From NCBI GenBank assembly GCA_934100165.1, contig CAKOPN010000001.1, forward strand, positions 180,389 through 244,388: a DNA stretch of 64,000 nucleotides, given 5' to 3'. Numbering within the stretch: the stretch's first letter is position 1; the number at the start of each line of letters is the position of its first letter. The translations under genes and the position numbers were made by a program. Under the pieces are notes generated by a model, which ran no database searches, was not told the DNA's origin, and worked only from the letters and a program-made list of their open reading frames with translations. This DNA is from an uncultured Bacilli bacterium. Its GTDB lineage: Bacteria; Bacillota_I; Bacilli_A; RF39; UBA660. Below are positions 2,230-33,249 of this stretch, one piece after another.

Positions 2230-3765
2230 TTACTTATTTGTCAAGCTTTCGTAAAGTGTGAAGTTGGCATCAGAGTAAAGTGGAATATAATTTTTATCAA
2301 GTTCTAATACTTTATTTAACTTATTTGTATTGTAAATAAGAACATGTGTTATGCCATATTTTGAAAATGTATCTCTATAATTATCAAAAATTTTCATTCC
2401 ATCTATAAATGCTGTACACCCTTTATTAAATTCTTCTGTATAAAGATCTGCTCTTGAATCATAAAAAACTGGAATTTCTTCAAATAACAAATAACTTCCA
2501 AAATTATACTCATTGAAAAGCTTAATATTTTTAACATCAAGATTATTTTTAATATAAGTTGATACTCCTATTGGATATTTTTTTGGATTAACATAAGGGA
2601 CTCTATAACTAGACTTAACATTTAAAACAGAAAATAGAATCATAAACAATGACAAAGTAACATAAACATACCCAGTATCGATAACATCTTCTAATTTTAT
2701 AGTAGTTAATCTCTTATCTATAAAGCTTTTCAAAATTCTAGCTATACTATAAAAGCCTAAAACTAAAAATAAAGCAAAACTTCTATTTGATAAAAGGCTA
2801 AGTAAGAAAAGACCACCTAGAAAGAAAAAGTCTTTAAGTTTAATTTTCATACTTCCTTGAAATAGTAAAAATACAAGAGCAAAAAATATTATAAATACAG
2901 CTGGACTATTACTTATTGTAATTGGTAAGTGTTCACTGATATATGACATAGTAACACCTTGCCTTGTATTATAAAAGTAAGTAAAAGGAACTAAAAAGTT
3001 AGGAGTTAAAAAGCCAGTTGCTAATACAAGCAAAACAGAAATCAAAAGTTTTTTGGTATTTTTTGCTTCTTCTATAATAATGACCCCATCACTTATATTC
3101 CTTTTTTCTTTATATATATTTATCTGCTTCTTGAATTTATTTTTTATATAGTAAACTAAATCTTGTACTAAGTATGGGAGAAATAATACAAATATAAATG
3201 GCCATACTGCTAAATGTACATTAGCAATTAGTAAAGAAAAAGCAAAAATATAAATAAAATATTTTTTCTTTCCTGTTTCTCTAAGCATTTCTATTGAATA
3301 AAGAATCAAAAGAAGAAAAATATAACTGACAAGCTGAGCCCTTGCTGTAATAAAGTTTCTAAAGCACATTCCTAATATTATTGTCATAAAGTAAGAAAGT
3401 CCTCTATCTTTAACTATTTTATTTGTAGTCACATAAAGAGTTACAAACAAAGCAAATGCTAAGACTATACTAGAAATATATACCCCATGAAAACCTGCAA
3501 AATGATAAATAAAATAAATTGCTAAATCATATAGCCAGTGTGGATATGTATAAGCAAGATTTGGAATAAAAGAAAAATGTTCTTTCATATCTATTCCATT
3601 ATTAAATATCGTCTGTCCAACTTTTATTGTATAAAATGTGTCATTTTGTAATTCTCTCGTAGTAAGAATTATTGCAAGAGAAAGGAATGTAATAATCATT
3701 ACACTCCAAAATATTATTTGTTTTTTGTTTTTATTTTTCATATTATCACCAATAAAATTATACAT
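2230..3765 (-). CDS. Polytopic membrane protein, possibly a GT-C-fold glycosyltransferase or polymerase-like protein
   Basis: More than 10 predicted transmembrane segments followed by a roughly 120-aa soluble C-terminal domain. No firm family assignment. Confidence 0.4.
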   Translation of the reverse strand: MYNFIGDNMKNKNKKQIIFWSVMIITFLSLAIILTTRELQNDTFYTIKVGQTIFNNGIDMKEHFSFIPNLAYTYPHWLYDLAIYFIYHFAGFHGVYISSIVLAFALFVTLYVTTNKIVKDRGLSYFMTIILGMCFRNFITARAQLVSYIFLLLILYSIEMLRETGKKKYFIYIFAFSLLIANVHLAVWPFIFVLFLPYLVQDLVYYIKNKFKKQINIYKEKRNISDGVIIIEEAKNTKKLLISVLLVLATGFLTPNFLVPFTYFYNTRQGVTMSYISEHLPITISNSPAVFIIFFALVFLLFQGSMKIKLKDFFFLGGLFLLSLLSNRSFALFLVLGFYSIARILKSFIDKRLTTIKLEDVIDTGYVYVTLSLFMILFSVLNVKSSYRVPYVNPKKYPIGVSTYIKNNLDVKNIKLFNEYNFGSYLLFEEIPVFYDSRADLYTEEFNKGCTAFIDGMKIFDNYRDTFSKYGITHVLIYNTNKLNKVLELDKNYIPLYSDANFTLYESLTNK

Positions 3766-3802
3766 AAAATCTTAAGAATTAGCAATTTTTAAGATTCTTT
3801 GG

Positions 3803-5308
3803 CTATGATTTTTTTACTAGCGCTAATTTTTTACCTTCATCTTTTGTTTTATTGTCAAACTTTTCTAAAACAGGAGCATAATCTTCTCTTGAACTTAAAA
3901 TAGTTAATGCTCTACTTTTAATGGGTTCTAACTCTTTTGGATCTTTTTGAAACATCCTTGCAACCTCTTCATGACTGCGTTCAACCCCTCCAAAAATACC
4001 TGTTCTATATGCTAAATATTTAAACGTATCAAAACCACATGTACTATATAAAGATAAATACATTCCTTTATTTTCTTTATCTGCAAAAAGTGTGGCAATA
4101 TAGGCCTTTCTAACCTTTTTTAAAGCTTTTGCTTCTATCTGTCTAACTCTTTCGCGTGTACAACCAAGTTGTCTTCCGATTTCTTCTAGTGTTCTTATTC
4201 CCTTACCATCAAGGCCTAATCTTTCTGTAAGAATTAGATGTTGTCTACTGTCAAGAGTTTTTTTATCGTTTAACACCCCTATTAAAAAGTCTTTTTGCAT
4301 TCCACTTATAACACTATCATCTACATTATCATCGCAAACTAGTAAATCTTCAAGTGTCATAACATCATCTTCATCTATCTTTTTATTTATGCTAACAACA
4401 GGCATTGTAGTTTCACGATAAATTAAATAGTCATTTCTACTAATATCTAATTTTTCTAATATTTCACTTTCAGTAGGTCTTCTACCAAGTTCTAATTCAA
4501 GGCTACTTATCCCTCTAGCAATTCTGCCATTTTTAAGAACTCTATGTACAGGAACTCTAACACTTCTACCAGTATCTGCTATACCTCTTGACACTGCTTG
4601 TCTTATCCACCATGTAGCATATGTAGAAAATGAAGTATCACGAGAAAGATCAAATGTTTCAATAGAATGAAGTAAACCATTACTACCAAACTGAATTAAA
4701 TCATCATAGTCAACAGTCGAAGAAAGGAAACTAAAATACATATTAGCAGCTCTATAAACAAGTGGCATATTTACTTCTAAAAGCTTAGAGATAGTATCAC
4801 TATCACCAGATTCAATTCTACGCATAAGAGCAAGATTAGCTTCACCATACTTTGAAAAATCTATGTTGGAATAATCACCATAATCAGTGTTTTTAATTTT
4901 TTCAATGCAACCATAGAAAGGAACTAAAGAAGGATAATTTACTCTTTCTTCCTCATTTAAACTTAATAATAGTTTTTTAACTATTGGAAATCTTCCCATA
5001 TATGATTTCATCTTCTCATCTGATAATGGACCAACTATAGAAAAATAAGAATTCAAGATTCTAGCTCTTTTTTCGTTACTCATAGAAGAATTAGAAAAGA
5101 GAACTTTACACTCACGTGAGAAATATAAATACTCATTTTTTGAACATTCACTTTCTATTTGGCTTTTAATAATTGATTTTACTTTTGCTATAACAAGTTT
5201 TGGATCTTTTTCTTTTAACATAACTTTTTCTACGGTAGTTCTTGCATTGCCAATGCCATAACAATTACACATATCAATAAGTTTTTCTCTTAATTTCTCA
5301 TTACTCAT
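3803..5308 (-). CDS. Sigma-70 family factor, SigA-like regions 2 to 4 with long N- and C-terminal extensions
   Basis: Region 2 reads DYDDLIQFGSNGLL...[29 protein letters not shown]. Region 4.2 reads [27 protein letters not shown]. The roughly 200-aa N-terminal domain is unrelated to region 1.1. The C-terminal extension carries a second region-4-like motif YLAYRTGIFGG..SHEEVARMF. Confidence 0.7.
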   Translation of the reverse strand: MSNEKLREKLIDMCNCYGIGNARTTVEKVMLKEKDPKLVIAKVKSIIKSQIESECSKNEYLYFSRECKVLFSNSSMSNEKRARILNSYFSIVGPLSDEKMKSYMGRFPIVKKLLLSLNEEERVNYPSLVPFYGCIEKIKNTDYGDYSNIDFSKYGEANLALMRRIESGDSDTISKLLEVNMPLVYRAANMYFSFLSSTVDYDDLIQFGSNGLLHSIETFDLSRDTSFSTYATWWIRQAVSRGIADTGRSVRVPVHRVLKNGRIARGISSLELELGRRPTESEILEKLDISRNDYLIYRETTMPVVSINKKIDEDDVMTLEDLLVCDDNVDDSVISGMQKDFLIGVLNDKKTLDSRQHLILTERLGLDGKGIRTLEEIGRQLGCTRERVRQIEAKALKKVRKAYIATLFADKENKGMYLSLYSTCGFDTFKYLAYRTGIFGGVERSHEEVARMFQKDPKELEPIKSRALTILSSREDYAPVLEKFDNKTKDEGKKLALVKKS

Positions 5309-5323
5309 TTTTTCACTTCTTTC

Positions 5324-6934
5324 TTACACTACTTTTCTAAAGCAAGATGCTGGTAGTTTTACTACTTTTAACTTTGTTTTCTTATCTTTATTTCCTGCTT
5401 CATTTCTATGTTTATTCTCCCACTCAGAAGAATCATAAATAAATAAAAGCGGATCATATAATTTATCATTTTTAAGTTTTTTTAAGACTTTTTGTTCCAA
5501 TTTCTTAGCGCCTCTAATATTTTTTAAAGCTTCTTCTTGAGATAGTCTTCTCTTATTAAATAACCCTGTTCTGCAAGCCAAATAATCAAATTGCGAATCT
5601 TCTGATGAATGCAAAAATGAAATATATGCTCTTCGTATATCTGGCCTTAACTCACTATCCTTTAAATTTAATTCTATTAAAACTGTTTTAATCTTTTGAA
5701 TAGCTTTACTTTGTATTTGACGAATACGTTCATGGGAACATGAAAATGATTTTGCTACTTCACTTAATGTAGCAGGTCTTCCGGCAGTAAGCCCTAATCT
5801 TTCTTTTAATATAAATCTTTCATTTTCATTAAGCATCAAAGAAGAATCTATCATATTCGTAATATATTCGCTTTCCATTTTTGAAAATACTTCTTCATCT
5901 ACTAATTTATTATCTATTAAACTAAAATCTGCAAGGGTATTAGTTTGTCTTTCTCCATTAACATTTTTATCAACACTAGTTATACCAAGCATAATCTCAC
6001 AGTAGATTAAATAATCTTTTCTACTCATTTTTAAAAATTTTAGTATTTCTTCCTCAGATGGAAAATGTCCGAGTTCTTTTTCAAGAGCTTCTATTTCTCT
6101 TTTTGTTTTTTTAGCAGCTTCTATTCTATGTACTGGCACTCTAACATTCCTTCCAGTATCATCAATACCTCTTTCAATAGATTGTTTTATCCATAATGTT
6201 GCATACGTAGAGAAAGACTTACCTTTACTTAAATCAAAACATTCTATTGCACGAAGAAGTCCTTCATTTCCTAATTGGATTAAATCATCAAAATCTAAAG
6301 ATGAAGAATTCTTTACATTATAATGAGAATGTGCAGCTCTATTAACTAAACCTTTGTTGAAAAATAATAATTTTTCTATTGCTTGACTATTACCAGATTC
6401 CATCATGTGCATAAGTTGGTCGTTTATTTTAGTGATATTTTCTGTCACATCAATATTATTTATTTCATCTTCATTATTTGGGGTATAACTGAGAAAAGAA
6501 ACAAGTGCAGGATACTTTTCAAAAGAGTTAGAATCACTAGAACCATATTGTTTACTAACAAAATCTTTAACTCTAGGAAATCTTCCTTGAATTGATAAAT
6601 AATCTTCACGAGAAAGTGGCCCAACCGTTTCAAAAAAATCATTTATTATTTTTAGTTTCTTAGCATCATCATAATATGGATTAGTAAAAAGATTCCTATA
6701 AACTCTAGAAAAATACAAGTTTTTATTAGATGAAAATTCTTTCCTCATCTCGGTTTTTAAAAGAGATTTAGCCTTCCTTAATGCATTTTCATAATATTCT
6801 TTAGAAGTACTACATTTAGCACTATTTGCATACGAAATAGAATCCGTAACAATTTTTTTGGAAGCTAAAATACCATAACTTTCACAAAGAAGTACTAACC
6901 TTTTCTTTATCTCCTCATTTGTCACTTTGATCAC
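5324..6934 (-). CDS. Sigma-70 family factor, paralog of 3803..5308 with similar extensions
   Basis: Region 2 reads DFDDLIQLGNEGLL...FSTYATLWIKQSIERGIDDTGRNVRVPVH. Region 4.2 reads TLSEVAKSFSCSHERIRQIQSKAIQKIK. The start is ambiguous between the GTG at 6934 and a GTG at about 6925 that has a GGGGTGA ribosome-binding site. Confidence 0.7.
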   Translation of the reverse strand: MIKVTNEEIKKRLVLLCESYGILASKKIVTDSISYANSAKCSTSKEYYENALRKAKSLLKTEMRKEFSSNKNLYFSRVYRNLFTNPYYDDAKKLKIINDFFETVGPLSREDYLSIQGRFPRVKDFVSKQYGSSDSNSFEKYPALVSFLSYTPNNEDEINNIDVTENITKINDQLMHMMESGNSQAIEKLLFFNKGLVNRAAHSHYNVKNSSSLDFDDLIQLGNEGLLRAIECFDLSKGKSFSTYATLWIKQSIERGIDDTGRNVRVPVHRIEAAKKTKREIEALEKELGHFPSEEEILKFLKMSRKDYLIYCEIMLGITSVDKNVNGERQTNTLADFSLIDNKLVDEEVFSKMESEYITNMIDSSLMLNENERFILKERLGLTAGRPATLSEVAKSFSCSHERIRQIQSKAIQKIKTVLIELNLKDSELRPDIRRAYISFLHSSEDSQFDYLACRTGLFNKRRLSQEEALKNIRGAKKLEQKVLKKLKNDKLYDPLLFIYDSSEWENKHRNEAGNKDKKTKLKVVKLPASCFRKVV

Positions 6935-6986
6935 CCCTAAATGTGAACGTTATTATACCATAAAAAATATTAAAAGAAAAGATTTT

Positions 6987-7625
6987 TTATTTAAATAAAG
7001 TTCTTAAAAGCTCATTTTCAGTTATATATTTTCCCTTAAAATAAAACAAGTGTATTTTATCTCTATACATTTCTTTGACATTTTTTATGATTTTCCTTTT
7101 CTTATAATTAAGATTATAAAGATATCTTTCTAGTAAAAACTTATTAAAATATTCTTTTCGTCTATTAAACTCATCAAAGATTTTAAATACAAGCAAAAAA
7201 AGGACAAATAAGAAAAAATAAGAACTAAAAAAATATACGGACAAGCAAAATATGAAAGTATAAACCGCAAAAGAAATAAATATTGTTATATTGTAACTTT
7301 TTCGATATGAAAATATGTAACACAGTAATATGTCAAGAAGTCTTCCACCATCAAGCGGATATATTGGTAAAAGATTAAAAATAAGTAAAAAATAATGGAA
7401 ATCATTAATATTTTTAATTTCTAAAAAAGTTAATAAGTAAAAATAAACAACCTGAAAAATTGGGCCCATAAGCATTATCAAGAGTTCTTCTTTTAACGGT
7501 TTATTTATAATAACGTCAAATTTAGTAATTCCACCAAGTGGATATATATAAATCTTATCAGTATTCCATTTATAATGTTTAGCCATAAGTAAATGTCCAA
7601 ATTCATGAACAATAATTAAAGACAT
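6987..7625 (-). CDS. M50 site-2 protease, SpoIVFB-like, without a CBS domain
   Basis: HEFGH zinc motif in a transmembrane helix and an LDGG motif. It lies directly after a SpoIVFA-like gene, downstream of mreD as in Bacillus. The N-terminus looks truncated (see findings). Confidence 0.6.
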   Translation of the reverse strand: MSLIIVHEFGHLLMAKHYKWNTDKIYIYPLGGITKFDVIINKPLKEELLIMLMGPIFQVVYFYLLTFLEIKNINDFHYFLLIFNLLPIYPLDGGRLLDILLCYIFSYRKSYNITIFISFAVYTFIFCLSVYFFSSYFFLFVLFLLVFKIFDEFNRRKEYFNKFLLERYLYNLNYKKRKIIKNVKEMYRDKIHLFYFKGKYITENELLRTLFK

Positions 7626-7707
7626 ATATATAATTATTTTTTTAAAATTTGCAGTAAAAAAAGTTATAAAAAGGAAAAGATAAGTAAATGGTGATATATA
7701 AATATTT

Positions 7708-8331
7708 TTATATAAACTCTTTATAATCTACATACTTCCCATCTTCTTTAAAAACTAAGTAAATATGCTTATCTTTTGCTTCTCCTACAAAGCTTCCTTT
7801 AGTTAAATGATCATAAAGTTTAATATCACCAACATTTATATTGCAATACCATATATCTACACCATTTTCTCCTTGTACTATAACTGTATTACCATAATCT
7901 GTTTTGTCACCAATAAATATTACTACACCATTTTCTAAAAGTGGTACTAAATAATTTGCATTAACTTCCAAAGAAACTCCATCTTTGTATGCACTACTTT
8001 TACTATATATTAACTTTTCACTAAAAACACGTTCTTCTCCTGGCACTATATCAATAGGAAAAATACTACCGAATTTAGAATTATACCATTTGGTAATTGT
8101 TGCAAAAGAAATAGTATTGTCATAGACTTCTTTATAAACATTTTTTTTAAAATTATCATTTACTTTGGCACCTATAAGAAAAGAAAGAAAAAGAATAAAA
8201 GAAATTAGTATTTTACTAACAAATACTTTAGCAAATGTCATGGAACTATTTATTTTCTTATTGTTAAAATTGTTATTTTTCTTTTTCATTAAATATTCCT
8301 CAATATTCCTATATTCATCCATATAAATCAC
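7708..8331 (-). CDS. SpoIVFA-like membrane protein with a degenerate LytM/M23 domain
   Basis: N-terminal transmembrane helix and a C-terminal M23-like fold that lacks the HxH catalytic motif. It sits upstream of the S2P gene. Confidence 0.5.
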   Translation of the reverse strand: MIYMDEYRNIEEYLMKKKNNNFNNKKINSSMTFAKVFVSKILISFILFLSFLIGAKVNDNFKKNVYKEVYDNTISFATITKWYNSKFGSIFPIDIVPGEERVFSEKLIYSKSSAYKDGVSLEVNANYLVPLLENGVVIFIGDKTDYGNTVIVQGENGVDIWYCNINVGDIKLYDHLTKGSFVGEAKDKHIYLVFKEDGKYVDYKEFI

Positions 8332-20131: not shown

Positions 20132-21784
20132 CTATTTTAAAACATAAGGATCACTGCTAATTCCAGTTCCACCTGCTATAACAGCACTATTTGTGATACT
20201 AATAACTGGTCTAACATAAGAAGTATCTTTTATATTTTTGCTTAAAATATTACCAGATGTATCAACAACATTTAATGTTTCAGTACCACTATTAGAAAGT
20301 GTCCAGTATTCTTGGTTACTACCAATCGTATACATATCACCTATCTTAGGTATACCAACTTTAATATTTAAAATATTGCTGTTGTCACAAGTAAAACTAT
20401 ATTTTGTTGTAGGAGTAACTAAGCTTACACAAAAGTCACCTACTACAAGTTTTTTACTATCTTCCTCAGGAAGATTTCCATACCACTCTGTATTTAAAAG
20501 TTTACCTATTGTAGTGCCTTGGTTATAAGTCGGTGTAATTATTTCATCAAACACTGTATTTAAGCTTGGAATAACATTTACTTTAACCAATCTAGTATAA
20601 TTAGTAGTAGTATTTATTATTCTATAAAGTTCTCCAGCAAAATTAACATATTCACCAGCATACCTTGTATTAAGAAGTGTACCAGTAAGAGCAGTACTTT
20701 CTCCTACTAATCTATAAGGATTATCTTTTGTACCTTCACCACCATAAGCATATGTAATGTTTGGATTAAGCACTATTGAAGGTCTTATTCCAACATATGT
20801 ATTTACACTAGCACTTACAGGGTTATTATTAGATATATACCAGTTATCGCTTTCACTAGATTTTGAAATTAACCACCAAGAATAATCACTATTTAAGAAT
20901 TCTTTTGATTTATCATATTCATAGTAATTAAGTAAACCAACTCTAGACTGCGTAACATTAGAAGTACCTGGCATACCAGAATTTGTAACTACACTATAGT
21001 TCCAATTAGCATTAAGTAAATAATAATCCGGATTTCTAAGTGTCTTTAAAAATGTATTATTAAGCCAAATATCAACATTACTATTATTAAAGTTTGATGA
21101 AGAATCATTAAATGGTAAAACAGTTACTACTTCATCTGATATTAGTTTAACTGTTTTATTATTATCGTTATAACTAACAATTCTCCACATTTTACCTGAA
21201 TAATAAACATAATTGTCAGGAGCATTTCCAGTTATATATCTATCAGCATTGCTATCAGCACCTGTTGCACTCAAACCAGAAATTTTGTCATATAAAACAT
21301 TTTCACGTTCTGCAACATATTTATCACAAGATTCTGTATTTTCTTTTAATTTTGAATATTCAACTTTATTTCTCTTCGCACACACAAGACTAGATTCAAC
21401 AGTTTTCTTACCATTAACATTTCTAATACGAACATCAATATAATTTTTGCTACTATCAATATCTTCAAAATTAGTAAGGTCATAAGAAGAGGCACCATTA
21501 CAAGTTACACCATCTTCATCAAACTCTTTTAAGTATTTATTCTTTACTAAAAATTCTACACTTGTGTCAATACACCCACTAGCATTTACTCCTCCTAAAT
21601 CATCTTTTCTACTATCAGCGTATAAAAGTGCAGCTTTTTCAATTAAATTATAATATTCATCATACTTTTTATTCTTGTTTTCCTTCATTAGTCTTGTTGT
21701 GGCAGGAAGTACAATAAGAAGTAAAAGTCCCATTATAACAATAACTGCAATAAGCTCAATTAAAGTAAATCCTTTCTTTTTCAT
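20132..21784 (-). CDS. Large type IV pilin-like protein with a class III (prepilin) signal
   Basis: MKKKGFTLIELIAVIVIMG prepilin leader and hydrophobic helix. About 550 aa. An extended -10 promoter is upstream. Confidence 0.6.
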   Translation of the reverse strand: MKKKGFTLIELIAVIVIMGLLLLIVLPATTRLMKENKNKKYDEYYNLIEKAALLYADSRKDDLGGVNASGCIDTSVEFLVKNKYLKEFDEDGVTCNGASSYDLTNFEDIDSSKNYIDVRIRNVNGKKTVESSLVCAKRNKVEYSKLKENTESCDKYVAERENVLYDKISGLSATGADSNADRYITGNAPDNYVYYSGKMWRIVSYNDNNKTVKLISDEVVTVLPFNDSSSNFNNSNVDIWLNNTFLKTLRNPDYYLLNANWNYSVVTNSGMPGTSNVTQSRVGLLNYYEYDKSKEFLNSDYSWWLISKSSESDNWYISNNNPVSASVNTYVGIRPSIVLNPNITYAYGGEGTKDNPYRLVGESTALTGTLLNTRYAGEYVNFAGELYRIINTTTNYTRLVKVNVIPSLNTVFDEIITPTYNQGTTIGKLLNTEWYGNLPEEDSKKLVVGDFCVSLVTPTTKYSFTCDNSNILNIKVGIPKIGDMYTIGSNQEYWTLSNSGTETLNVVDTSGNILSKNIKDTSYVRPVISITNSAVIAGGTGISSDPYVLK

Positions 21785-21807
21785 AGACACCATCCTATTC
21801 TACAAAA

Positions 21808-23918: not shown

Positions 23919-24572
23919 TTTTATCTCTTCATTTATAACATGTCTTTTATTACTCAAACTACCTGGAATCATAGAAAGAATATTTTCTTTTTCATCCTTC
24001 AAATAAGTATAATATTTATAAAACATTCTATTTTTATTTTCTAACAAGCAAGGTCCAAAATAAAGCTCTTTATAAGAATAATTTTTATTGCCCTTAATAA
24101 ATTTCATAATTATATAATATTTGCCATCTTCAAGGACAATTGCTTCACTTTCAATAATAAATCCAAGTTTTGTTATTTTTTCTCTTACTTGGTAAAACTT
24201 ATTGTTGGAGGATATTACAAGTTTTTTTATATTCGAAAGTTTTTCTTTATTATCATTTAATATTTGTACAATAGTATCCATTCCCATACCCGATATTACT
24301 ATCGTATCAGTATCAGTAGAAAGTCTTTCTATTCCATTTGCTTGTTGCACTTTGATTTTATCTTGTAACGAATATTTTTTTATATTTTCTAAAGCTTTTT
24401 GAAGTGGTCCTTCATTTATATCTGAAGCAGTTACCACTAGTGTCTCATCATTTTGTAAAAGATATATATCTAAAAGTGCATGATCACATCCAACATCAAT
24501 AATACTTCTAGAAATCTTATCATCTAAAACAAAATCTGAAACTTTTTGTAATCTTTCACTTAGTTTAATCAA
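23892..24572 (-). CDS. trmK: tRNA (adenine22-N1)-methyltransferase TrmK (YqfN family)
   Basis: [18 protein letters not shown]-methyltransferase motif. It sits downstream of rpoD as in Bacillus. Confidence 0.7.
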
Positions 24573-25662
24573 TTAAGAAATCCTTTAATTTTCTAGAACG
24601 TGATGGATGTCTTAGTTTTCTTAAAGCTTTTGCTTCGATTTGACGTATTCTTTCTCTTGTTACACCAAATATTTGTCCAACTTCTTCAAGAGTTCTGCAT
24701 TGTCCATCATCAAGTCCAAATCTTAATCTTAAAACTTTTTCTTCCCTATCAGTTAATGTAAGTAATACATTTGTAAGTTCTTCTTTAAGCATTTCTACAG
24801 TAGCATACTCTTCTGGAGACATTGTTCTCTCATCTTTAAGGAAATCTCCTAAATGAGAATCATCTTCTTCACCTATTGGTGTTTCCAAAGATACTGGATC
24901 TTGAGATATTTTATATACTTCACGAACCTTATCTACTGTTATATTTAACTTTTTAGCAATTTCTTCTTCTGTTGGTTCACGGTTCAACTCTTGAGTAAGT
25001 TGTCTTTGAACACGAGCAAGTTTGTTTATTGTTTCTACCATATGAACTGGTACTCTTATTGTTCTTGCTTGGTCTGCAATTGCACGTGTTATAGCTTGTC
25101 TAATCCACCATGTAGCATAAGTTGAGAACTTATATCCTTTTGTAGGATCAAATTTGTCAACCGCTTTCATAAGTCCAATGTTTCCTTCTTGAATTAAATC
25201 AAGGAAAAGCATACCACGGCCAACATATCTTTTTGCAATACTTACAACAAGTCTTAAGTTAGACTCAGCAAGCATCTTTTTAGCATATTCATCGCCTTCT
25301 TCAGCAAGACGAGCATATTCAAATTCCTCATCTGTTGTAAGAAGGTTAATTCTACCTATTTCCTTTAAATACATTCTAACTGGATCATTTATTTTGATAT
25401 CTTTAGACATAGTCAAATCTTCTACAACAAGACCTGATGGGTCTTCTGCATCATTATTGTTATCTGCAGTTTCACTAATTATTTCTATTCCATTTTCTAC
25501 AAGAGCATTATATAGATCATCAAGTGTATCACTATCTACTTCAAGTCCTTTAAGTTCACCAGCTATCTCTTCATATGTTACATAACCTTTTTTCTTACCA
25601 GACTCTATTAGTTTATTTTTTCTCTCTTCGATAGTCTTAATTTCTTCTAACATAATATTCAC
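24565..25662 (-). CDS. rpoD: RNA polymerase primary sigma factor SigA/RpoD
   Basis: Regions 1.2 to 4.2 are present, including the IRVPVHMVE motif and the 4.2 HTH. Confidence 0.95.
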
Positions 25663-31488: not shown

Positions 31489-33249
31489 TTAATATCTTTG
31501 ATTCATATCTACAAATTCACTAGGTTCATAAACTGTACCAGTAAACCATACTTCTCCACTATCTTTATCTCTAATAATAAACATATATGGCTTATCAAAA
31601 GTTAAATCTATCTTTTCAACAGGAACTTCAAATAAATGATCATAGAAACCTCCATTTATATTTCCAGCTCCTCCTAACACAGTAGCGGCAGAAGCTTTTA
31701 TTCCTTCATTAGAAAATTCAATATTTGCTTTATGTCTAACTAATAAAATAAATTCACCTCTGGAAGAAACTATGCTAGATAAATCAGCTTTCGTCTGATC
31801 AAAAATATCTTCTACACCAAGTTTCTTTAAATCTTCTTTTAAATTAAGATTATATTCGAACTTAAATACAGGAATAGATGCATTTATTTCTATTACTTTG
31901 CCTTGATCAAAGCTTTCTGGTTTTATAGTTTTAAGTCCAGAAATAACATTGTTTAAAGTTTTTGCATCAACATTATTTATATACTCTTTTAGACTAACAT
32001 TTGTAGGCATTATACCAACATATTGTAGTGTTGTACCATCATAAGTCTTTAAATCTTTTGCAAAAGCTTTTACAGAGTCATCTGTATATACTAAGAAATC
32101 CGTTGATGATGAATACTTCCCGTAATTAGCATCAAGTTCGTCAATAAAATTATTAACAAACTTAGGAATATCAAGCTCATTCTCAGATTTTGCATATTCA
32201 TAGTTACGAGGATCTTCATTTAACCAGTTAGTATATTCTGTTTCTATCATTTTATAGATGTTATCTCTTCCTAGTTCTTTTACAATGTTATAGTTATTTA
32301 TTGTAGCACTTACATCTAAAACACCGGCATCATACTTATTATTAAATTTAACTTTTTCCATTGGTGTACCATCAGTTACAGAAACATAATTGTTATATTT
32401 TTCATGAGCAAAATAAAATTCCCAATAATAATCTCCTTTTGTACCATCTGGTTGAATTCTTTTAACCCATTCCATATCAATACCTAATGCATTAACAAGT
32501 GCAAAATCAAGATCTTTCAAATCAGCATCACTTACAACATTATCAATTAAGTTAAGAGTTTTATCCTTAACCCAAGCGTTAATTGTTTTAGCGTTTTCAA
32601 AAGAATCATATACTACATCAGCATCGTATTTCCCTTTTAACTTGTTAACATAACCAGCTTGTACCTCATCTTTGAAATCATTTCTTATAAACATAGCATT
32701 AGCAAGTGATATATTCTTACTGTTTACATATTTTTTTGATATATAATCGCCAACGATTGCATTGATTTGACCATATGAATCACCAGAAGCACCTTCTTTA
32801 AGCATTTGTAATGCATATTTAATTGAAAGTGGGCTGTATACTTTATTTATCTCTTCATTTTCAAGTTTTAAAAATTGAAGATCGAAATTTTCAAGCGAAT
32901 TACCACTCATTTTATACGGTGAAGTATATTTTTCATTTTCACTAACAATAGGATCTTTTTTTGGCTCCTTTTTATTAAGATTATTTAGGAAAAACACTTC
33001 TCCCACTATGCATGCAGCTGATATTATGACAAAGCAAATCCAAAATGTTATTTTCTTTTTGTTTCCCTCTTTTTTTGTCATATCTTTTTTCTCATTATCA
33101 TCTTGTTCTTTTACTATAACTTCTTCTTTATTATTATTTTGCACATCTAAAACCGTTTTTTCTGCATTATTTTCTTGTTCTTTTGCTATAGCATTTTCTG
33201 CATTATTTTCTTGTTCTTTCACAGTATCTTTTTTCTCACTATCTTCCAT
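31489..33249 (-). CDS. Serpin-family protease inhibitor with an N-terminal repeat region and a transmembrane anchor
   Basis: Serpin motifs YSPLSIKYALQMLKEGASGDS, a reactive-centre-loop-like GIKASAATVLGGAG, and the C-terminal signature FDKPYMFIIRD...WFTGTV. The N-terminus carries KEQENNAE repeats and a transmembrane helix. Confidence 0.7.
   Translation of the reverse strand: MEDSEKKDTVKEQENNAENAIAKEQENNAEKTVLDVQNNNKEEVIVKEQDDNEKKDMTKKEGNKKKITFWICFVIISAACIVGEVFFLNNLNKKEPKKDPIVSENEKYTSPYKMSGNSLENFDLQFLKLENEEINKVYSPLSIKYALQMLKEGASGDSYGQINAIVGDYISKKYVNSKNISLANAMFIRNDFKDEVQAGYVNKLKGKYDADVVYDSFENAKTINAWVKDKTLNLIDNVVSDADLKDLDFALVNALGIDMEWVKRIQPDGTKGDYYWEFYFAHEKYNNYVSVTDGTPMEKVKFNNKYDAGVLDVSATINNYNIVKELGRDNIYKMIETEYTNWLNEDPRNYEYAKSENELDIPKFVNNFIDELDANYGKYSSSTDFLVYTDDSVKAFAKDLKTYDGTTLQYVGIMPTNVSLKEYINNVDAKTLNNVISGLKTIKPESFDQGKVIEINASIPVFKFEYNLNLKEDLKKLGVEDIFDQTKADLSSIVSSRGEFILLVRHKANIEFSNEGIKASAATVLGGAGNINGGFYDHLFEVPVEKIDLTFDKPYMFIIRDKDSGEVWFTGTVYEPSEFVDMNQRY

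Follow-up and report, generated by a model that had tools for sequence, protein, structure and literature searches.

Tandem, putatively RpoD-derived sigma factors with an orphan N-terminal domain and a degenerate second region 4 in an uncultured gut Bacilli bacterium

We analysed a 64,000-nucleotide (nt) stretch of DNA from an uncultured Bacilli bacterium (contig CAKOPN010000001.1, positions 180,389 to 244,388), referred to here as the window, in which two adjacent minus-strand genes encode large proteins of the sigma-70 family. These genes are named S1 (3803-5308, 501 amino acids [aa]) and S2 (5324-6925, 533 aa) in this report. Their products are paralogs, and each carries sigma regions 2, 3 and 4 recognized by Pfam between an N-terminal and a C-terminal extension. 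The window is a chromosomal segment of 25-34% G+C in which almost every gene lies on the minus strand, and it includes valS, dnaG-rpoD, a penicillin-binding protein gene, pfl, ftsK and tRNA clusters. The closest valyl-tRNA synthetases (at most 72% identity) were from uncultured gut "Bacilli/Tenericutes" metagenome-assembled genomes (MAGs) of human, rabbit and chicken origin and from Clostridium sp. CAG:628.

The start of S2 required a correction. In the list of open reading frames (ORFs) it was called from the first of two in-frame GTG codons, which lie 3 codons apart (5324-6934, 536 aa). The conserved ribosome binding site AGGGGTGA (6931-6938, minus strand) lies 5 nt from the second GTG, at 6925, and VTNEE or MTNEE was the start of S2 in every gene call from other assemblies; the real start is thus most likely the second GTG, giving 533 aa. 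The original prediction had described ORFs of 501 and 536 aa, and both genes indeed lie at the predicted minus-strand coordinates, with S2 being three codons shorter than supposed. The predicted gap of 15 nt between the two genes was measured at exactly that value. Upstream of S2 we observed an extended -10-like element, TGGTATAAT (6952-6960, minus strand), whose TGnTATAAT pattern was kept in 6/6 aligned strains. An A+T-rich hairpin after the S1 stop codon (3764-3801, minus strand, -7.8 kcal/mol, z = -2.0) may act as a weak terminator of S1; part of it coincides with the promoter-like TTGCTA-17-TATAAT of the gene that follows. S2 and S1 probably form a two-gene transcription unit that is driven by an extended -10 promoter of its own.

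The sigma core, comprising regions 2 to 4, spans residues 161-403 of S1 (4100-4828, minus strand) and, from Pfam and NCBIfam alignments, approximately residues 173-415 of S2 (5681-6409, minus strand). Membership in the sigma-70 family was clear for both proteins. Against Pfam cutoffs of 24 to 25 bits, S1 scored 50.7 for region 2, 45.9 for region 4 and 35.1 for region 3, and S2 scored 45.1, 38.9 and 31.8, respectively, as the original prediction of sigma-70 regions in both ORFs would require. No Pfam family other than Sigma70_r2, r3 and r4 exceeded its cutoff on either protein. Region 1.1 (PF03979) and region 1.2 (PF00140) gave no Pfam match, even when the isolated N-termini were searched at E<=10; in ordinary RpoDs PF00140 is present and PF03979 usually is. 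The best sequence match of the S1 core in the PDB was B. subtilis SigA, residues 119-359.

Assignment of S1 and S2 to a curated sigma class was then considered. The top NCBIfam models (RpoD, RpoS and MzaA) aligned with the core only, at approximately residues 157-403 of S1, and reached at most half of their curated cutoffs. As RpoD equivalogs the proteins fell well short, with 175 and 164 bits versus 354 for RpoD_Cterm and 173 and 141 bits versus 572 for PRK09210. The same was true of group 2, for which the scores were 158 and 153 bits versus 384.5 with Sig70-cyanoRpoD and 159 versus 379 with rpoS, region 1.2 being undetected. An extracytoplasmic function (ECF, group 4) identity did not fit either, since region 3 is present and the best matches all belonged to groups 1 and 2. 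With MzaA, the alignment covered profile positions 455-704 of 726, again the core only, at 164 versus 800 bits. S1 and S2 had 47-48 listed NCBIfam hits, the best 25 of which included no SigK model. Nor do the two proteins serve as the housekeeping sigma factor: an ordinary rpoD lies beside dnaG in the window (24565-25662), and strains with nonsense or frameshift alleles of S1 and S2 occur in nature (see below). The idea that this architecture lies outside the curated sigma families was thereby upheld, as NCBIfam scores were far below their cutoffs and Pfam, PHROG and PADLOC profiles touched the core only.

We compared the recognition helices with those of the RpoD encoded in the window. S1 has the same -10 helix, the same RVPVH motif (region 3.0 of the host RpoD reads RVPVHMVE) and the same -35 helix. 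S2 reads FSTYATLWIKQSIERGIDD in regions 2.3-2.4/3.0, with FSTYATLWIKQS..E as its -10 helix, and SHERIRQIQSKAI in region 4.2. Relative to RpoD, S2 has L for W and E for T in region 2.4 and H for R in region 4.2, at positions that we take to be W433, T440 and R584 of E. coli sigma70. The helices had been described as almost identical to those of rpoD in both proteins; this is accurate for S1 and only partly so for S2, which is changed at -10 and -35 contact positions. By the same token, the proposed reading of SigA-type promoters is plausible for S1 only, S2 having altered contact positions for both elements.

C-terminal to region 4, both proteins continue into a segment that we delimited by profile-profile alignment and designate sigma4'. 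It spans residues 404-475 of S1 (3884-4099, minus strand), where a short Lys-rich tail extends to 3806, and approximately residues 416-490 of S2 (5456-5680, minus strand), where a Lys-rich tail, defined by composition, occupies 5327-5455 (minus strand). Pfam Sigma70_r4 alone missed sigma4', and the isolated C-terminal parts matched no Pfam family at E<=10. In hhalign, 61 columns of a profile of the S1/S2 extensions matched the region 4 profile (Prob 86%, P=5e-6), and the register was kept through both region 4.1 and the helix-turn-helix. This alignment scored 33.5; column shuffles (n = 100) scored 9.6 +/- 1.8, with a maximum of 14.1, and the reversed alignment scored 9.3. Moreover, with a profile of whole RpoD the top match of the extension was to region 4 (positions 293-359, P=1.4e-4). 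Given the in-register match and the shuffle control, the C-terminal extension is a degenerate copy of region 4 that arose by internal duplication, and the partial region-4-like motif first noticed there is confirmed, none of the 100 shuffles having come close. The residues used by region 4.2 for -35 contact are not retained: TRERVRQ of region 4.2 aligns with DPKELEP in S1 sigma4'. The corresponding NIRGAKK of S2 is less degenerate by our own reading of the sequences. Such a duplication is unusual for a primary-type sigma factor, and literature searches did not find a description of a sigma factor with a duplicated region 4.

The N-terminal domain was predicted to be a helical bundle of 8 helices in S1 (residues 1-139; 4892-5308, minus strand; isoelectric point [pI], 9.3), with a mean predicted local distance difference test score of 78 and a predicted template modeling score of 0.65. 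In S2, profiles and composition place the helical domain at approximately residues 1-150 (6476-6925, minus strand; pI, 9.4), followed by an acidic linker. The domain is basic, with a net charge of +8; in the host RpoD, by contrast, the N-terminal 90 residues, in which region 1.1 is contained, have a net charge of -13 (pI, 4.2). Neither S1 nor S2 contains a hydrophobic or transmembrane segment, the top 19-residue Kyte-Doolittle mean being below 1. Searches for relatives of the domain led back to the same proteins. It matched zero Pfam families at E<=10 on its own; an exhaustive HMMER search of 1.84 billion representative proteins with a profile built from S1 and S2 returned S1/S2-type proteins and two further hits, P0006 and P0007; a word-index search returned same-species fragments only; and a scan of GTDB genomes with N-domain patterns found zero relatives, although the genomes scanned may lack the species itself or have it masked. 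The predicted fold had zero structural relatives, including among predicted viral structures. P0006 and P0007 were rejected as false hits, as their matches were inflated by repeats and neither protein had a meaningful Pfam identity. We also rejected the domain as a diverged sigma region or a copy of the C-terminal extension (hhalign P of approximately 0.3-0.6). In view of the missing relatives, the basic charge and the absence of a hydrophobic segment, the N-terminal domain is an orphan and not an equivalent of region 1.1. The original prediction was right that it is unrelated to region 1.1; its size is some 140-150 folded residues plus an acidic linker, and not about 200.

S1 and S2 could be aligned over their full length, both extensions included, with 36% identity (E=1e-99). 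Within the core, they share 45% identity with each other and approximately 40% with the host RpoD or any Firmicute RpoD, compared to 55-86% among the RpoDs themselves. The full-length homology and the core identities together indicate that S1 and S2 are mutual closest relatives and that the extensions are older than the duplication. On these sequence comparisons, we regard the pair as a branch that left the primary-sigma lineage long ago and has evolved fast.

We then examined S1 and S2 in other strains. The exact proteins were found in NCBI, ENA and Logan assemblies, on contigs of up to 290 kb, and belonged to clusters of 82 and 131 members; most of the listed cluster members were full length. 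Both genes were intact at two independent loci (L083 and L093). At three others (L091, L092 and L094) S1 was intact and S2 carried an A8->A7 frameshift that removes its last ~15 residues, leaving a 520-aa S2. The A8 tract lies in the Lys-rich tail of S2 (window ~5380-5390, minus strand; codon ~512), and A7 was present in three assemblies; this difference may represent slipped-strand variation. The possibility that the genes are fusions created by assembly was rejected, since intact forms of 501 aa and 533-535 aa occur across many independent assemblies, with each domain under purifying selection. Selection was estimated as the ratio of nonsynonymous to synonymous substitution rates (dN/dS) by the Nei-Gojobori method, comparing the window with four other haplotypes. 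This ratio was 0.08-0.09 for S1 and 0.12-0.21 for S2, with nearly all neighbouring genes at 0.06-0.28. By domain, most comparisons gave 0.08-0.21 for the N-terminal domain, 0.05-0.10 for the core and 0-0.085 for the C-terminal extension; the N-terminal domain reached 0.31 in one comparison with very few differences. The extensions are thus constrained like the core.

Disrupted alleles of both genes were observed in two haplotypes. In L001 (identical to L002), GAA->TAA changes interrupt S2 at codon 277 and S1 at codon 166. In L090, GAA->TAA interrupts S2 at codon 63 and a +G frameshift lies near codon 344 of S1. The gene directly downstream of S1 (2230-3765, minus strand), which encodes an orphan polytopic membrane protein of 511 aa with zero Pfam, NCBIfam, PHROG or PADLOC matches, is also frameshifted in L090, by an internal deletion of what would be ~60 nt from the length difference, while the flanking M50, 135-aa and rluD genes are intact. 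All three premature stops are GAA->TAA changes at different codons (L001 9212-9214 and 10496-10498; L090 ~1307-1309). Recoding of the in-frame TAA codons of L001 was rejected in favour of ordinary nonsense mutations, because their positions are non-homologous and L090 has a frameshift and a deletion instead. These natural nonsense and frameshift alleles indicate that S2-S1 is non-essential. S2 and S1 appear to be lost together, possibly with the downstream membrane-protein gene, and this gene may be functionally tied to S2/S1, since it is broken alongside both in L090.

The original prediction had placed the pair directly downstream of SpoIVFA/SpoIVFB-like genes, and genes for an M23 peptidase-domain, SpoIVFA-like protein (7708-8331, minus strand) and an M50, SpoIVFB-like site-2 protease (6987-7625, minus strand; motifs HEFGH and NLLPIYPLDGG) do lie immediately upstream of S2. 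The gene order in the window is radC-mreC-mreD, M23, M50, S2, S1 and the membrane protein, with rluD nearby. A first-transmembrane-like segment, ISPFTYLFLFITFFTANF, occurs in frame upstream of the M50 ATG (7626-7727, minus strand) and is homologous to the N-terminus of the L085 orthologue. As there is no ATG, GTG or TTG there, translation of M50 probably begins from an ATT or ATA that overlaps the M23 stop. A scan of JGI metagenomes with the M50 protein retrieved one same-species locus.

Five related species (L085 to L089; RadC 62-67% identical) have the same radC-mreC-mreD-M23-M50 series. There, the M50 gene is followed by 0-2 genes (folC, ham1 or a small zinc-ribbon membrane protein) and then by a sigma gene of 229-230 aa (L085 14057-14749, L086 13502-14191, L087 7028-7720, L088 12068-12760 and L089 14834-15526), downstream of which lie a polysaccharide deacetylase gene, a gene for a cadherin-like protein, yqeG and yqeH. 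The sigma gene was confirmed as sigK in L085-L087 by NF004471 (296-305 bits; cutoff, 252), with a pro-sequence-like N-terminus of ~20 aa. Since sigK follows the pair in the five relatives, the M23 and M50 proteins form a SpoIVFA/SpoIVFB-like pair, with pro-sigmaK as the expected substrate in this lineage. A spoIVFA/spoIVFB-like pair is kept together with sigK in these small-genome gut Bacilli MAGs, which may be a sign that the lineage has retained or repurposed late-sporulation machinery. Synteny with the relatives stops exactly after M50, where S2-S1 begin, and sigK, folC, yqeG and yqeH were not found within the window. Because folC and yqeH are housekeeping genes, the sigK-containing block was presumably relocated and not deleted. 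S2-S1 would therefore sit at a rearrangement junction and need not replace sigK.

Taken together, these data led us to consider it likely that S2 and S1 are functional, non-essential, RpoD-derived alternative sigma factors that acquired accessory domains and were duplicated in tandem. One RpoD/SigA-derived ancestor would have lost the acidic region 1.1, gained the basic helical N-terminal domain and duplicated region 4 at its C-terminus, and this remodelled ancestor would then have duplicated in tandem to give S2 and S1. Since the core-binding and promoter-contact determinants of regions 2 to 4 are kept, both proteins would compete with RpoD for binding to core RNA polymerase. S1, having kept all the -10 and -35 reading residues of RpoD, would recognize TTGACA/TATAAT-like promoters, and S2 probably has a shifted or weaker promoter specificity. 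The canonical -35-contact residues are gone from sigma4', most completely so in S1. The N-terminal domain and sigma4', with its Lys-rich tail, could serve as accessory modules that contact additional upstream DNA or a partner, or that regulate the protein itself, and not as pro-peptides. The gene for the 511-aa membrane protein is the only candidate regulon target. Several points weigh against this interpretation. Region 1.2 survives in S1 and S2 only as a degenerate remnant and S2 is without one tryptophan of the melting dyad, so that sigma activity is something we infer for both proteins. Acidic residues and prolines occupy the DNA-contact sites of S1 sigma4', and canonical DNA reading by this domain is therefore disfavoured. 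The roles proposed for the N-terminal domain and sigma4' are guesses. The family is known in one species only, which limits comparison with other lineages, and the co-inactivation of S2 and S1 was seen in two haplotypes from metagenome assemblies.

In a more elaborate version, which we regard as unlikely, sigma4' and the basic N-terminal domain would form a built-in control or targeting device of a kind not described before, making S2 and S1 a self-regulated pair that is maybe tied to the SpoIVFB-like protease, in a lineage whose sigK block has left the protease genes. Sigma4' might then swap with the true sigma4 on the beta-flap or occlude it, or contact an upstream element or a partner. The neighbourhood also suggests a pro-sigma arrangement, as put forward in the original prediction, with the extensions being inhibitory pro-domains removed by the adjacent M50 protease as for pro-sigmaK. 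Indeed, S2 lies directly downstream of M23-M50, with a 61-nt spacer in which no terminator was detected; purifying selection acts on the M50 gene (dN/dS ~0.10); and S2-S1 occupy a "sigma slot," with sigK in a similar position in the five relatives and not found in the 64-kb window. Nevertheless, S1 and S2 contain no hydrophobic or membrane-associating segment, and their extensions of 100-150 aa, predicted to be folded and found to be constrained, are unlike the ~20-aa pro-sequence of the relatives' SigK. S2 moreover has its own conserved promoter-like element, and the fact that folC, yqeG and yqeH are missing from the window as well points to a block that moved, probably with sigK included, rather than to a replacement. 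The expected substrate of the protease, sigK, is present in the relatives, and we consider processing of the extensions by the neighbouring protease very unlikely.

Decay was weighed likewise. S2 and S1 could be neutral duplicates heading to pseudogenes, with extensions that are non-functional fused sequence, given that both carry nonsense or frameshift mutations in two of approximately six haplotypes, that a third has the frameshift in the S2 tail and that the family is limited to one species. However, dN/dS was low in every domain (0.03-0.3), as in the housekeeping neighbours, all three parts have been retained since a duplication whose products are now 36% identical, and intact alleles predominate in the clusters. 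The disruptions themselves look recent, because dN/dS is still low in the disrupted strains, and we hold decay to be quite unlikely. An origin from a mobile element, in which the sigma factors were imported by a phage, plasmid or defence island and serve that element, seems highly improbable. It could be suspected from MzaA being among the top NCBIfam and PADLOC hits, from RpoD-like sigma factors that occur on Firmicute plasmids beside restriction genes and from the position of S2-S1 at a synteny break, where they are recurrently lost. Yet the MzaA match stays within the core, at about one-fifth of the 800-bit cutoff; MZA partner, integrase and phage genes were not found nearby; phage and plasmid records match the core at most, as do PHROG profiles; and the N-terminal domain has no match among predicted viral structures. 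Moreover, the G+C content of the locus resembles that of its surroundings, and every strain seen had the locus in the same position.

Comparison with known systems places the RpoD-derived pair proposed here closest to the primary sigma factors in its core. S1 and S2 share regions 2, 3 and 4 with group 1 RpoD/SigA, and S1 has the same -10, RVPVH and -35 helices as the host RpoD; unlike group 1 proteins, they have no acidic region 1.1, are only ~40% identical to them, contain an added N-terminal domain and a second region 4 and are dispensable. They resemble group 2 factors (RpoS, cyanobacterial SigB-E and actinobacterial HrdA-D/SigB) in being non-essential RpoD-like paralogs with recognition helices of RpoD type that presumably compete for core polymerase, and the recurrent natural loss-of-function alleles of S1 and S2 recall rpoS polymorphism. 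Group 2 factors, in contrast, keep region 1.2 and have no folded extra N-terminal domain or region 4 repeat, and S1 and S2 are a separate, Firmicute-derived branch. MzaA of the MZA anti-phage system is likewise a large sigma-70 protein with a long non-sigma N-terminal part before an RpoD-like core, but its N-terminal domain is unrelated and it has no sigma4'; the neighbours of S2-S1 are mreCD, M23, M50, the membrane-protein gene and rluD. With pro-sigmaK/SpoIVFB the likeness lies in the neighbourhood, as M23-M50 follow mreCD and a sigma gene (sigK) comes next in the relatives, whereas S1 and S2 are not SigK-like, being twice as large and lacking a short hydrophobic pro-sequence. In ECF factors of the ECF41, ECF42 and ECF56 types, a fused domain after region 4 modulates the activity of the factor itself and replaces an anti-sigma factor (PMC8999054, PMC7826278). 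ECF factors with such C-terminal extensions nonetheless differ from S1 and S2 in belonging to group 4, lacking region 3 and carrying SnoaL-like, TPR or Cys-rich domains, while S1 and S2 are RpoD-derived and carry a copy of region 4.

Some further observations were made during this analysis. An ordinary 374-aa RpoD-like sigma factor is encoded on the conjugative E. faecium plasmid pW142 (NZ_CP096052.1 57649-58773), between a type I restriction R subunit gene and a helicase-related gene, and is thus an accessory sigma of primary-like type in a Firmicute defence-island setting. The window also encodes a 586-aa protein (31489-33249, minus strand) with a serpin domain at its C-terminus (Pfam E=1e-43). 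Serpin domains are uncommon in bacteria. A 553-aa protein (20132-21793, minus strand) combines an N-terminal prepilin-type methylation motif with DUF6273, and its orthologues are similarly placed in relatives such as L085 and L089.

Few bacterial proteins are as conserved as the sigma factors of the housekeeping lineage; in Firmicutes, RpoD-like paralogs are, to our knowledge, unusual. The reach of the finding is limited by the confinement of the family to one uncultured gut species. Within that species, a primary-type sigma factor would have been remodelled through loss of region 1.1, gain of an orphan domain and duplication of its -35-binding domain, after which the gene was duplicated again. 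If it is true that the second region 4 regulates or retargets the polymerase, this would represent a new kind of sigma control that works without a separate anti-sigma protein.

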